A stretch of 64,000 nucleotides of DNA from Escherichia coli (GCF_029227855.1 NZ_CP074357.1), one strand, 5' to 3'; positions 2,410 through 61,610 are shown, counted from the stretch's first letter. Made by a program: numbers and translations. Notes: generated by a model not told the origin, from the letters alone.

Positions 2410-2422
2410 AAAAGTTACTTTT
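2410..2422. repeat. Copy of dispersed 13-bp palindrome AAAAGTTACTTTT
   Basis: Exact palindrome read directly in sequence. Confidence 0.6.
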
Positions 2423-2531
2423 TTGCACATTAAGCCGAGATGTAAGACCAGTAGTAAAAGAAGCACTAAGCATAGCACTGATAAATAACTTATTTTTCAG
2501 CATGTTATAACCAGTGCATACCTGGTAGCTT

Positions 2532-3407
2532 TCAACCTTGTTTGGCGAGGGCCAGCTTAGGGCTTCTTTTGAAGATCTGAAATTGTATGTCGCGACCTTT
2601 CTTAACTTCTTGATAATCGAGATATCCGATAGATTCAAGTTCCCGCATTGCTTTACGAATTATCTGGTTTTGCGTACGAATAGGGGTTGTAAGAAGCAAC
2701 CTTTCCCTCAACCGTTTCATATTAACGAACAACGTACCAGCTGGCATTGCTTCAAAATAAATATAGAGAGATTGCGCAGCTTCTTTTTTAGCCAAAATGT
2801 ATAGAACCTGAAGGCTTAACAATGTCTTATGGTCGTAACGATACAGTTCCCACATAGAAGGATCCCCAACCAACTCAACAGTATCGCTTTTTGGATCAAT
2901 CATAGCCTTCTGCACCAGATGCGTTACTGTGAACCGACCACTCCGAGAGTCTGAGAAGGCAAGCACTACCGATGCAAGGTTCATTAATGACTCTTTAAAG
3001 CGCGCACGAGTTCGTTTGTTGATGTTTGTTGAACTGATACCACACATCTTCGCAAACTCGTTAAAAGTCAGGGTAATCTTCTCGGAAGTAAAACCATATT
3101 TACTGAAAGCCATGATGATCCCGAGCCAGCACTTAAAGTCGGTAGACATAGATAGTTTGACACCAGTTATCTTGATGTCGTCATAACCCTCCGATCTTGC
3201 AATTTCCATACACGAAAGCTCATCAGAGGCATCAACTTCAAAGTTTCGGTCGCGGTTTTCTTTTGTGCCGACAGGGGTAAATACACTCAATCTCAACAGG
3301 GCCACGGGCTGAACCGACTTGGACGAGTTAGGCGTCAGTTGATAAGTCTTACCTGATTCATTACTGGTTACGTCAAAAGGATGGATTAACTCGTTGTTTT
3401 TAATCAT
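2532..3407 (-). CDS. repA: Iteron-binding replication initiator RepA (P1/RepFIB type)
   Basis: 291 aa; conserved blocks shared with recalled P1 RepA / F RepFIB RepA (TVQPVAL.RL.VF, DFK.W.GII, AQ.LY.YFE); iterons on both sides. Confidence 0.85.
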   Translation of the reverse strand: MIKNNELIHPFDVTSNESGKTYQLTPNSSKSVQPVALLRLSVFTPVGTKENRDRNFEVDASDELSCMEIARSEGYDDIKITGVKLSMSTDFKCWLGIIMAFSKYGFTSEKITLTFNEFAKMCGISSTNINKRTRARFKESLMNLASVVLAFSDSRSGRFTVTHLVQKAMIDPKSDTVELVGDPSMWELYRYDHKTLLSLQVLYILAKKEAAQSLYIYFEAMPAGTLFVNMKRLRERLLLTTPIRTQNQIIRKAMRELESIGYLDYQEVKKGRDIQFQIFKRSPKLALAKQG

Positions 3408-3464
3408 TAACTTAACTCGTCGGTGATAAGATTTTCATTTGGCAAACTGTTTATAACATATTCT

Positions 3465-3563
3465 TGCAAATGCTTTTTACGCATTAACCTAAATGCCATA
3501 AGCATTCCAGTAAATGCCTTCCTTATTCATTCAAATGCTTTTCGCATGCATCCGAATGCCGGA
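3465..3563. repeat. Iterons upstream of repA (opposite orientation), likely origin/promoter iterons
   Basis: Repeated AAATGCYTT / CATTCAAATGCTTTTC units, reverse complement of the 2141-2396 iteron family. Confidence 0.65.
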
Positions 3564-3606
3564 TCCTTTCATAAAGTCACTATAATCAATGAGTTAAAGA
3601 TGCCGT

Positions 3607-3654
3607 GATCTTTACTTGAACTCTATTGATCTTTAGTGATCTAAAGAATTGATC
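3607..3654. promoter_or_regulatory. Cluster of four TGATCT (GATC) repeats beside the origin iterons; P1 oriR-like Dam-methylation element
   Basis: GATC at 3607, 3628, 3638 and 3651 within 48 bp, each in a TGATCT context. Confidence 0.55.
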
Positions 3655-3883
3655 TATCCTGTTGAAAACAATGATAAGTCCATATAAAACAAGGAATAGC
3701 GCTCCTTTAACAATATCTACAGATCGCAAACGGAAATGAACGAGGGTCTACTATCATTGTTTTATTCAAGACAGTTTTTATTTTAATTTTATTAAGCAAA
3801 TTTTTTGAGTTTACCTTTTAGATGTATCAGCCCTATTTGGCAAATTTGAGGTTCATGTATCATGTAGTAAACAGGAGGAAGAT

Positions 3884-4939
3884 ATGAACAACAGCAAACA
3901 TACAGTCATTGAAGTGGATACTAATCTAGTTGAAATTGAAAAGGGATTTAATCCCCGAGAGGCGGTAATCGGAGATTTGTGTTACGAACAAGAACCTGTC
4001 AAGTCGATGATTGTGTCAATCAAACAAGCCTTTAAGGAAGGAAGGCAGGTTGATATGATCAAGGTCGTAAAAAGAAAAGGTAAATATTTAGTTCGTCAAG
4101 GTCATACTCGTTTTCATGGCTTAAAATTAGCAATTTCTGAAGGTGCTAATATTCCAAAATTATCTGTTATCCTAATCGATTATAAAAACGAAATTGAAGA
4201 ATACCTTGAGAACCTCGATGGTAACAGAAGCAATGGGCTAAATCCGGTTGGGCAAGCTCATGCATTAGCTCATGCTGTTAGTCTCGGGTATTCGGTTGAA
4301 GAACTAGCAATGCGATATCAACGATCAACTACCGCAATTCGTAATATGCTAAAAATCCTTGATATGCCATTAGAGCTTCAACATTTGATTAGCCTAAATC
4401 TAATCAAAAAAACGCTCGCCATTGAAATAATGTTAAAATATTCCAACGATCACAAAATGGTTTTAAAACATATAGAAGGTTTCTTACCTGGCGTTAAGAA
4501 TATTGAGACTACAACGAGCAAAATTGTAGGCATACCTGAACACAATGCAGCTGGAGCAGGACCAGACACCTTAAATAAAGGCGGACCAGAAAAGAAAAAT
4601 TCGGCAGTCACTCGTAAGACTTTGGGTATTAAGCGCCTCTCGCATAAGAAAACAGAACGGCTAAAATCTGAATTTCTTGAGCTTGTGGAAAGTACACATA
4701 CGGAATCTATAACGAATACTCAAACAGAACTAAAATTTGGTAGAGATAGTGCACACTTGTTCAAAAATGTTAATAGTAATAATGTAATATTTTCCAATGA
4801 TGGTGTTCAAATAATCTTGAATGATGAAAAGCTAAATATTTTATTGTCTTTACTTAACGACGAAAATACAGCAATCATTGTTTCTAAACCAAAATTAGAA
4901 GAGCTTCTGGAAATTCGAGATCTCCTTAAGGAATATTAA
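3884..4939 (+). CDS. ParB/KorB-like DNA-binding protein (ParB N-terminal domain plus HTH), paralog 1
   Basis: 351 aa; GFNPRE and VRQGHTRFHGLKLA (ParB-box-like) then HTH SVEELAMRYQRSTTAIRNMLKILDMPLELQ; RBS AGGAGG. Confidence 0.75.
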   Translation: MNNSKHTVIEVDTNLVEIEKGFNPREAVIGDLCYEQEPVKSMIVSIKQAFKEGRQVDMIKVVKRKGKYLVRQGHTRFHGLKLAISEGANIPKLSVILIDYKNEIEEYLENLDGNRSNGLNPVGQAHALAHAVSLGYSVEELAMRYQRSTTAIRNMLKILDMPLELQHLISLNLIKKTLAIEIMLKYSNDHKMVLKHIEGFLPGVKNIETTTSKIVGIPEHNAAGAGPDTLNKGGPEKKNSAVTRKTLGIKRLSHKKTERLKSEFLELVESTHTESITNTQTELKFGRDSAHLFKNVNSNNVIFSNDGVQIILNDEKLNILLSLLNDENTAIIVSKPKLEELLEIRDLLKEY

Positions 4940-59968: not shown

Positions 59969-60155
59969 AGCATTACCTGCCAGTTCGTTCAAATTTCTGC
60001 TTCCTTAAGCCCGGGCCAAAAGCCCGGCTCAATCCAAAAACTGAACGTACCAGTTTACCTCTATATCTCCTGAATCCCCTGCGACTTACAAGAGACCCGC
60101 ACCGGTTTAGCCATTCCTGTCCTGCCACTCTCCCATCACTGGCCCAGACAACCGG

Positions 60156-60168
60156 AAAAGTAACTTTT
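60156..60168. repeat. Copy of dispersed 13-bp palindrome (AAAAGTAACTTTT)
   Basis: 228 bp upstream of parB-like gene 60384. Confidence 0.6.
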
Positions 60169-60281
60169 CTCTCTGAGTCACCTTCTGAACCAGTTATTTT
60201 GCTTAAACGTAAAAACGGCCCACTGTTGTGAAGATTTAAAACGGACGGATCGAGTAGTATTGCCTCAGGAAAATTTTTAAA

Positions 60282-60294
60282 AAAAGTTACTTTT
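60282..60294. repeat. Copy of dispersed 13-bp palindrome AAAAGTTACTTTT
   Basis: 102 bp upstream of parB-like gene 60384. Confidence 0.6.
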
Positions 60295-60383
60295 TCTTCT
60301 CCGCAACCTATTAGGAAAAATGTCGAACCTGGTATTGTTGTGTTGTAGCGCAGTTAAACAACCAACCAAAAAAGAGAACAAAA

Positions 60384-61568
60384 ATGTCCGCAATCGAAAC
60401 TGAAGTAAAAAACAACAGCAACGAAATCAGCCTTCGTGGTTACCTGGAACGCACTGGTAACGGTGCCCGTAAAGGCAACGGCCTTATCATTGACCCTTCG
60501 GTTGTTGTAGAGCAGGAAGGCTTTAACACCCGCACGGCCGGTATGGGCGAGCTCTACTATTCAATGCCTCACGTTGTGGAACACCTGAACAGCCTGGCCG
60601 ATGCCTACATGGAAGACCCGTTCAGCGTGACGCCTATCGTTGTTCAGATGGTTAATGGCGTACCTGTACTGCGTCAGGGGGCTTGCCGTATCCGTTCCAT
60701 CGCTATTGCAAACCGCCAGCTGGAAGCAGAAGGGCGTGAACGCATTACTCGTATTCGCTGCGAAGAGTTTCGCGGTAGCGCTTCAAAAGCAGAACTCTTC
60801 ACCCTGACCGGCAACTCCAACCTGGCGCTGTCTGTCGTAGCTGAAGCGCTTTCAATTAAGCGTCTGGTTGAAGATAAAGAAGAGCCTAAGACCTTTGCGG
60901 AACTGGCAAAAAAACGTGGTAAATCAGAGCAGCATCTTCGCCAGATGGTTCGCGTACTGGACCTGCCTTCTGAACTACAGACCATGCTTGTGAGCGATCA
61001 GGTGAGCATGTACGTTGCACTGGACGAGTATATGTACAGCGGTGAGGATGCGGTAGATAACATCAACAAAGCGATCTCCATCTATGGCAAGGCGACGAAA
61101 AACACGCTGAAATTCGTCAAAGCTGCCAAGGTAGAAGAGCGCATGGCAGATCCGCAGACTCCGGAAAACATCGGTGCTGAGCAACCGGCAGATGATACTA
61201 CCGATAACACCCCGGTACCGGATCAACTGAACGATGAAAGCAATACGGAGACGCTGGATACGCCACCGGTACAGGAACCGGCTCCAGCTCCAAAGGACAG
61301 CGCTCCTAAACAGAACCCGGCAGGTAAAGCACCTTCCATGTCCAGCGTTCTGAACAAAAAGACTGTGACCGTCATTGCAGACACCGCGATCCCGATTTTT
61401 GAACGTATTGCTGAAGAAGCCAAGCTTAAAGAAGGTGAATCTGTCAGTACTGATACTTACACGCTTGTTCTGACCAATGATGAAATGAACGATATCATCA
61501 ACGCTCATGCTGACCTGAAAGAGTACCTGCGTAAGCATGCTGATAAGATGAACAAGGGACAGTCATGA
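60384..61568 (+). CDS. ParB/KorB-like DNA-binding protein, paralog 3
   Basis: 394 aa; GFNTRT and VLRQGACRIRSIAIA, HTH FAELAKKRGKSEQHLRQMVRVLDLPSELQ; acidic/Pro-rich linker. Confidence 0.75.
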   Translation: MSAIETEVKNNSNEISLRGYLERTGNGARKGNGLIIDPSVVVEQEGFNTRTAGMGELYYSMPHVVEHLNSLADAYMEDPFSVTPIVVQMVNGVPVLRQGACRIRSIAIANRQLEAEGRERITRIRCEEFRGSASKAELFTLTGNSNLALSVVAEALSIKRLVEDKEEPKTFAELAKKRGKSEQHLRQMVRVLDLPSELQTMLVSDQVSMYVALDEYMYSGEDAVDNINKAISIYGKATKNTLKFVKAAKVEERMADPQTPENIGAEQPADDTTDNTPVPDQLNDESNTETLDTPPVQEPAPAPKDSAPKQNPAGKAPSMSSVLNKKTVTVIADTAIPIFERIAEEAKLKEGESVSTDTYTLVLTNDEMNDIINAHADLKEYLRKHADKMNKGQS

Positions 61569-61574
61569 TTTTCT

Positions 61575-61610
61575 GACCGACCCCTCCATCCGGACGGGTC
61601 GGTAACTTTT
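61575..61610 (+). terminator. Putative terminator (hairpin ACCGACCC...GGGTCGGT plus T5), overlapping a palindrome half-site
   Basis: Stem 61575-61582 / 61595-61602, T-run 61606-61610. Confidence 0.45.

Follow-up and report, generated by a model that had tools for sequence, protein, structure and literature searches.

Why does one short palindrome recur along the backbone of a large conjugative plasmid, and which protein reads it? The question arises from a 64-kb stretch of Escherichia coli DNA (the window, meaning the whole stretch analysed), in which an initial annotation had noticed the 13-mer AAAAGT-W-ACTTTT in many copies and proposed it as the operator of a plasmid-wide regulon, possibly bound by ParB-like proteins encoded nearby. 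The window matches positions 32001-96000 of NZ_MZ152088.1 at 100% identity; this record is a conjugative E. coli plasmid of 267,429 bp and type IncHI2A, whose relaxase is MOBH and whose mating-pair system is MPF_F. On it, the window lies between Tra2, with the trh genes, and Tra1, with mobI-mobH-traD. This plasmid carries blaCTX-M-55, qnrS1 and further resistance genes, and IncHI1, IncHI2 and IncHI1B plasmids are major multidrug-resistance vehicles in Salmonella, E. coli, Enterobacter and Klebsiella. The palindrome exists as a discrete element, is strongly enriched, is biased in position and is under purifying selection at the DNA level. By analogy with known systems, we propose, at a probability of about one half, that its core, AAAGTNACTTT, is an IncH-backbone recognition site of a dimeric DNA-binding protein, the likeliest binder being the orphan ParB-fold protein C and/or its paralog B, which would control backbone promoters.

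The palindrome, its distribution and its conservation

An anchored logo places the informative core in the 11-mer AAAGTNACTTT, of which the 13-mer is the usual form. W stands at the centre of 86% of copies, and positions -1 and +11 favour A and T, respectively; further out, information content drops to about zero, the flanks not being conserved. The palindrome is therefore self-contained rather than part of a longer repeat, a miniature inverted-repeat transposable element (MITE), a promoter cassette or a terminator. By the same absence of conserved sequence beyond the core, a repetitive extragenic palindrome (REP)-like element was rejected, as was the repeated promoter or terminator element that the initial annotation had raised as an alternative. 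Shuffled sequences predict 0.01 exact occurrences of AAAAGTWACTTTT and 0.19 with up to one mismatch; the window has nine and 13, respectively, confirming that its recurrence is far beyond chance. The window total is 15 core copies, starting at 2411, 6195, 16138, 16203, 24374, 26598, 32315, 33350, 37519, 41731, 46780, 49511, 51718, 60157 and 60283, plus one conserved one-mismatch variant, AAAAGTACCTTTT, at 8058. The first list of copies was essentially right: its entry at 51709 belongs at 51718, copies at 26597 and 33350 had been missed, and the variant reported near 8057 is the one at 8058, exactly conserved in R27. With three mismatches to the core, a half-site listed at 61601 (GGTAACTTTTTCA) is not counted.

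The proposed plasmid-wide scope holds for the IncHI2 backbone and extends to other lineages. The whole IncHI2 plasmid, pieced together from seven annotated stretches, has 49 core copies against ~0.4-1.4 expected (Markov orders 1-5), and 49 of its 53 occurrences of the 9-mer AAGTNACTT are full 11-mers. The copies span Tra1, Tra2, the ter region and the remaining backbone, and none is found at one mismatch or fewer in the resistance-island region at ~124-168 kb. R27 (IncHI1) has 46 core copies over its whole length, where 0.44 would be expected. Two segments of the IncHI1B/pNDM-MAR type from Klebsiella contain 15 copies in 41 kb and 23 in 40.6 kb, a Yersinia intermedia contig seven in 21 kb, and a Leclercia-type contig five exact and nine one-mismatch copies in 21 kb; a 40.6-kb segment of IncC backbone has no core copy. 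In an unbiased search for over-represented words, the only other family common to IncHI1 and IncHI2 was a tandem array upstream of parA. Among species-representative genomes searched for two closely spaced copies, the matches listed were unrelated tandem repeats (Bacteroidota, Clostridia and others), none of them encoding paralogs A, B or C, while one further plasmid match is an IncHI2 deletion derivative that adds no information. Expression of the IncHI backbone is known to be controlled globally via TrhR/TrhY-HtdA and H-NS/Hha, and the literature searched describes no shared cis element: the motif is not mentioned in a plasmid context, no IncHI cis element of such type surfaced, and keyword searches on IncHI operators, ParB-like proteins and electrophoretic mobility shift assay (EMSA) returned only R27 transcriptome work and unrelated papers.

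Position was assessed on whole replicons with a uniform gene map based on open reading frames (ORFs). Non-ORF DNA, 17% of the IncHI2 sequence, holds 24 of the 49 sites (P = 3e-7), an approximately 3-fold intergenic enrichment, and in R27 it holds 20 of 46 (P = 2.5e-5). Intergenic sites lie mostly 5' of a gene, at a centre-to-start distance of mostly 80-220 bp. In the window, eleven sites are ~90-410 bp upstream of plus-strand starts, ten of these within 92-233 bp, and the copies first reported upstream of the genes at 8150, 16370, 32461 and 60384 are all present. The original description as a promoter-proximal operator thus stands in part: the bias is real, but about half of all sites on the replicon are intragenic, conserved nonetheless, and promoter spacing varies. 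This spacing, read from conserved -35/-10 blocks in IncHI2/R27 alignments and not from mapped transcription starts, puts the motif centre at about -48 for gene B, about -57 for gene C, -66 to -68 for promoters of IncHI1B and -165 where a clear TATAAT precedes the gene at record position 97506; at trhR the motif may lie downstream of the promoter, possibly at +50. A site for a fixed-geometry activator was rejected on this reading; the variable geometry argues against it, and against a promoter-occluding repressor, and fits proteins acting at a distance. Since the intragenic sites are conserved too, a loading or roadblock site of the ParB type is a better description than promoter operator.

Conservation points to selection on the site itself. 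When IncHI2 sites were aligned to R27 with 150 bp on either side, the motif was covered by the alignment at 23 sites, and all ten specified bases are kept at 21 of them, where 0.84 would be expected (mean flank identity 72%). Sixteen of the orthologous sites are intragenic, in genes that include traD, trhI, trhN, rsp, trhR and those for a Tus-like protein and a VWA protein. Third codon positions at these sites are identical in 42 of 42 cases inside the motif and in 48% of flanking codons (Fisher P = 9e-14), indicating that the DNA word is under purifying selection independently of the encoded protein.

ParB-like paralogs as candidate binders

Three ParB-like paralogs are encoded on the plus strand of the window: A (3884-4939, 351 amino acids), next to a probable RepB-family origin; B (8150-9313, 387 amino acids), which is R0042 of R27 and the second candidate for a binder; and C (60384-61568, 394 amino acids), probably R0104 of R27 and the best candidate for a putative binder. 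Their initial description as ParB-like proteins with a helix-turn-helix is well supported. They form one family, and all carry the ParB-type helix-turn-helix of Pfam PF17762 (HTH_ParB; 1.5e-5 for A and 1.7e-4 for B) and match PHROG 1033, 'ParB-like partition protein', at 1e-21 to 3e-28 (6.8e-25 for A, 3.3e-28 for B), besides weak ParB/Noc NCBIfam matches. Conserved motifs are GFNxR, the box II-like RQGxCRxxA and DGN, and B has a box II-like GHCRLKA. The N-terminal ParB/Srx (CTPase) fold is present in A, B and C, and a structure model of C matches ParB, KorB and Noc, its best global match being KorB in the KorA-DNA complex (8QA9). A, B and C are ParB-fold proteins. None has an adjacent ParA gene; the lack of ParA reported at first is true inside the window, but the plasmid encodes ParA/ParB and ParM elsewhere.

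The palindrome lies upstream of B in 3/3 and of C in 5/5 lineages examined. Before C there is a double site at -228/-102 in IncHI2 (60156-60168 and 60282-60294 in the window, both exact matches), at -223/-105 in R27 and at -210/-109 in the Yersinia type; Klebsiella KP-p1 has six copies in ~870 bp, and the Leclercia type one copy at -257 and a one-mismatch copy at -290. About 17 bp separate the proximal IncHI2 copy from a conserved putative -35 (TTAGGA) downstream of it, which is accompanied by an extended -10 (TGgTATTGT). Before B, IncHI2 and R27 share the identical conserved variant AAAAGTACCTTTT, at 8058-8070 in the window (92 bp upstream of the gene) and inside a conserved promoter block at 45096 in R27, and IncHI1B has a canonical copy at -117. 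Scan and alignment found no palindrome in the upstream region of A. Both candidates are well expressed: on R27 microarrays R0042 (B) is among the most highly expressed plasmid genes, with 6132 and 2278 units at 25 and 37 °C, and C (probably R0104) reaches ~2200 units at both temperatures (PMC7366339). R0042 rises another 3.4-fold in an htdA mutant, and parA and parB are htdA-independent (PMC7366339, Tables S3 and S4).

The region upstream of A, beside the RepB-family rep gene (window 3408-3883), has its own features, namely iteron-like repeats (AAATGCC and AAATGCTTTT) and a GATC cluster, all conserved in R27. It is probably a replication origin, so that A would adjoin an origin.

From the site and the ParB fold, both of which are observed, we infer which protein binds, the direction of its effect and its possible use of cytidine triphosphate (CTP). 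A dimer of C and/or B would dock on AAAGT-N-ACTTT through its ParB-type helix-turn-helix and would spread, slide or bridge from ~45-50 loading sites to influence neighbouring promoters over varying distances. B and C would autoregulate their own genes, and many backbone operons would come under coordinated control, among them those of the Ig-like surface proteins, blocks of small genes and DNA methyltransferase genes, and the oriT/tra promoters. The effect could be either repression, as by KorB, or counter-silencing of H-NS/Hha, as by VirB.

Several observations weigh against this proposal. The first arginine of the 'GERR' motif for CTP is a cysteine here, which makes CTP binding uncertain; the family consensus RQG-x-C-R-x-R-A keeps the G, the second R and the A of GERRxRA. 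The recognition helices of B and C are only moderately conserved into IncHI1B (35-36% overall identity), whereas the motif is invariant, and three paralogs face a single dispersed palindrome. Clustering upstream of C is also inherited synteny, so that the five lineages are not fully independent. A search next to B and C recognised no KorA-like or 053-like partner, and in A, B and C Pfam gives HTH_ParB only, with no KorB domain or KorB-type C-terminal domain. Finally, on IncC a member of the A/B/C family coexists with a different palindrome bound by a different ParB.

A class of dispersed palindromes bound by ParB-family proteins on conjugative plasmids is already known, and KorB of RK2/RP4 (IncP) offers a plausible analogy. 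KorB acts as a CTP-dependent sliding clamp at 12 dispersed 13-bp palindromes, OB (TTTAGCSGCTAAA), which likewise have an odd central base, lie in backbone copies at variable promoter distance, some far from any promoter, and include a site at the binder's own gene, as the genes of the IncHI candidates do; these candidates also combine a ParB N-domain with a KorB/ParB-type DNA-binding fold. The IncHI site has another sequence and is about four times more numerous (46-49 vs 12). Its candidate binders are orphans in three paralogs with no adjacent ParA, differ from KorB in the domain and partner features given above (a TrbA-like partner included), and have RQGxCR in place of GERR in box II; their binding and CTP dependence are putative.

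The sister family IncC/IncA, also MOBH and MPF_F, provides a second comparison. Its ParB binds 14 dispersed 22-bp parS inverted repeats (core TTTCACATGTGAAA), four of them intragenic, as proven by EMSA, and autoregulates (PMC10954446, Nucleic Acids Res 2024); this is the canonical ParB encoded with parA in parAB053, where one of the parS repeats overlaps the parA promoter (PMC10954446). In both families the palindromes are spread over the conserved backbone, mostly intergenic and sometimes intragenic, and the IncHI half-site words recur, in everted order, as the outer pentamers (ACTTT...AAAGT) of the extended IncC site, which may be coincidence or shared ancestry of recognition. By contrast, the IncHI site measures only 11-13 bp and outnumbers the IncC repeats three- to fourfold, and the canonical IncHI parAB region has repeats of its own and no palindrome. 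In the locus examined from IncC plasmid pNDM10505, seven parS copies reading aACTTTCACATGTGAAAGTt are found at locus positions 291, 3875, 4334, 9649, 12985, 24029 and 27444, and locus positions 19944-20882 encode the A/B/C-family member.

Shigella VirB (an H-NS counter-silencer), Bacillus subtilis Noc (~70 dispersed sites) and BisD of ICEclc are also ParA-less ParB-fold proteins with palindromic sites and action at a distance. Their site sequences are unrelated, and counter-silencing, membrane tethering or activation would be hypothetical for the IncHI candidates. What is notable in the IncH case is the density of sites, their invariance across IncH lineages, their conservation within genes and their separation from the canonical partition system.

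Competing explanations

In another reading, which would mirror the sister family IncC, the palindromes are dispersed parS centromeres of the canonical IncHI ParA/ParB (Par1) and any regulation is secondary. The scattered IncC repeats bind a canonical KorB-domain ParB and stabilise replicons, IncHI plasmids do encode ParA/ParB, and both families have a comparable mixture of intergenic and intragenic sites. Nevertheless, whereas an IncC parS overlaps the parA promoter, AAAGTNACTTT keeps at least 3 kb away from the start of parA in IncHI2 and R27 and ~2.9 kb away in IncHI1B, where the nearest copy is ~600 bp beyond the end of parB. Each parA is preceded instead by a lineage-specific tandem array (core TGGCGATTAAGGGGGTTAAAT in IncHI1 and IncHI2, another repeat in IncHI1B), the parAB promoters have their own palindrome, ACGCATTATGCGT, in IncHI1 and IncHI2, and parA and parB of R27 do not share the regulation of the remaining backbone. 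With parAB lacking nearby sites and having separate conserved arrays, the canonical ParB (R0019 in R27) becomes a less likely binder, and we consider this explanation improbable. A plasmid-wide regulon conserved in IncHI is also documented for the TrhR/TrhY-HtdA circuit, which controls 139 of 181 expressed R27 genes, most non-tra genes included; nearly all R27 backbone genes respond to htdA, and the paper on this regulon describes no cis element. The palindrome could be that element, as copies stand at conserved positions upstream of mobI (-187), trhR (-86/-87) and trhA, and the H and AC promoters have copies. However, the response to TrhR/TrhY is by standard read from the promoter of the F operon, which needs only pBAD-trhRY to work as a chromosomal fusion. 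Even with two mismatches allowed, this promoter contains no copy in IncHI2 and only one poor two-mismatch match in R27, which makes TrhR/TrhY an unlikely binder. The R27 Z promoter has no copy either, whereas the R operon has one and is HtdA-independent. Pfam and PHROG recognise no DNA-binding domain in TrhR, TrhY or HtdA, nor in the 'transcriptional regulator' of Tra2, and HtdA is reported to act at the protein level. All this leaves the circuit quite improbable as the reader of the palindrome.

It is conceivable, though on balance unlikely, that another protein, an unrecognised plasmid regulator or a conserved host protein, binds the site and that the ParB-like genes are mere members of its regulon. 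Between lineages the ParB-like proteins share only 35-50% identity while the motif does not vary, as could be expected if the binder were under tight constraint, a host protein for instance, and most backbone proteins are uncharacterised. To our knowledge, though, no enterobacterial transcription-factor motif matches the palindrome, which counts against such a binder. The motif is moreover confined to IncH-type backbones, being absent from co-resident accessory DNA and the IncC segment examined, and its densest clusters are at the gene for C. A structural or single-strand role, as a hairpin or a priming or processing signal in conjugative transfer, seems extremely improbable. It would draw on inverted repeats of the oriT region whose arms start with AAAAGTGAC, and on the copy at 41730 within a longer hairpin-like palindrome; yet the stem is 5 bp and A/T-rich with a loop of at most 3 nt and thus very unstable, the site, being palindromic, has no strand bias, its flanks are unconstrained, and the enrichment at promoters would be left unexplained.

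The arrays before parA lie directly upstream of the gene, at 17.9-21.1 kb of NZ_MZ152088.1, 25.6-27.8 kb of R27 and 26.3-27.1 kb of the IncHI1B segment. TGGCGATTAAGGGGGTTAAAT forms 20 copies with a period of ~52-54 bp in IncHI1 and 12 copies with a period of ~249 bp in IncHI2, the IncHI1B repeat is CCCGTTGTTCGCAGTCGGATAC, and the parA promoter palindromes are ACGCATTATGCGT and AAGTGCATTgtAATGCACTT. Arrays and promoter palindromes are likely the centromere and operator of Par1. In the mobI-trhR intergenic region (oriT; 108.9-109.1 kb of NZ_MZ152088.1 and 108.4-108.6 kb of R27), two to three pairs of strongly conserved long inverted repeats, AAAAGTGACCCTATG-N10-CATAGGGTCACTTTT, probably represent relaxosome or oriT structures; each arm starts with a half-site of the dispersed palindrome.

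Returning to C and/or B as the binder, one 11-bp word, present ~45-50 times per plasmid and invariant across lineages, is a testable handle: it points to candidate global regulators (R0042 and R0104 in R27), predicts their targets, and is a possible titration or incompatibility target to destabilise or silence IncHI plasmids. It would add a third, much denser case of ParB-family proteins repurposed for plasmid-wide control. A bolder version, which we hold to be rather unlikely, has an orphan ParB-CTPase clamp (C and/or B) coating the whole IncH backbone from ~45-50 entry points and setting plasmid-wide expression by silencing or by countering H-NS/Hha, which are known to regulate IncHI plasmids heavily. 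This version would tie in the generalised derepression in htdA mutants and the thermoregulation of conjugation. Global control of IncHI plasmids would then find its missing cis element in the palindrome, within a ParB-type network far denser than that of KorB or of the IncC ParB.

Individual copies and neighbouring genes in the window

The window contains a RepB-family rep gene, repHI2, three large Ig-like protein genes, several DNA methyltransferase genes, a long series of small plus-strand genes, a hok toxin gene and several insertion sequences. The latter interrupt the backbone (IS100, IS66-family, IS5-family, ISKpn18 and IS150; window 149-1950, 11648-13960, 14277-15245, 22742-23986 and 54935-56304), and none of these five includes a palindrome copy. 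IS100 directly adjoins the exact match AAAAGTTACTTTT at 2410-2422, which follows the RepB-family rep gene (2532-3407, minus strand) 110 bp past its stop. The R27 copy at 39447, just past the RepB-family rep stop, occupies the equivalent position, although this pair has no BLAST alignment. The exact match at 6194-6206 lies 90 bp inside the annotated start of the coding sequence 6105-6959; at the orthologous R27 position 10/10 bases are kept while the flanks are 65% identical.

Most Ig-like genes have a palindrome copy upstream. Their products are proteins of ~800 amino acids, and the three paralogs of the window are encoded at 16370-18826, 24488-26908 (minus strand) and 32461-34851. Upstream of the first are two exact matches 65 bp apart, at 16137-16149 (233 bp before the gene) and 16202-16214 (168 bp), which flank a putative TTGAAT/TAAAAT promoter. 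The second has a copy with exact core ~100 bp past its stop (24373-24385) and another inside the gene, ~300 bp after its start (26597-26609), of which R27 keeps 10/10 bases. The third is preceded at 147 bp by an exact match (32314-32326) and has a core copy, AAAGTGACTTT, inside it (33350-33360). The IncHI1B counterpart comprises three tandem Ig-like genes (segment positions 31149-38639) with one palindrome copy before each.

Further copies precede other genes of the window. Exact matches at 37518-37530 and 41730-41742 lie 182 bp upstream of the gene at 37700 and 218 bp upstream of that at 41948. A copy with exact core (46779-46791), downstream of a PAPS-reductase-family gene, is 144 bp upstream of the gene at 46923, and core copies at 49511-49521 and 51718-51728 are 162 bp upstream of the gene at 49673 and ~410 bp upstream of that at 52127. 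A longer near-palindrome, GCGGTGT AAAAGTTACTTTT CACCGC (window 41723-41749), encloses the copy at 41730 and is followed by the T-run GTCGTTTT; this forms a terminator-like hairpin downstream of the small ORF 41386-41532.

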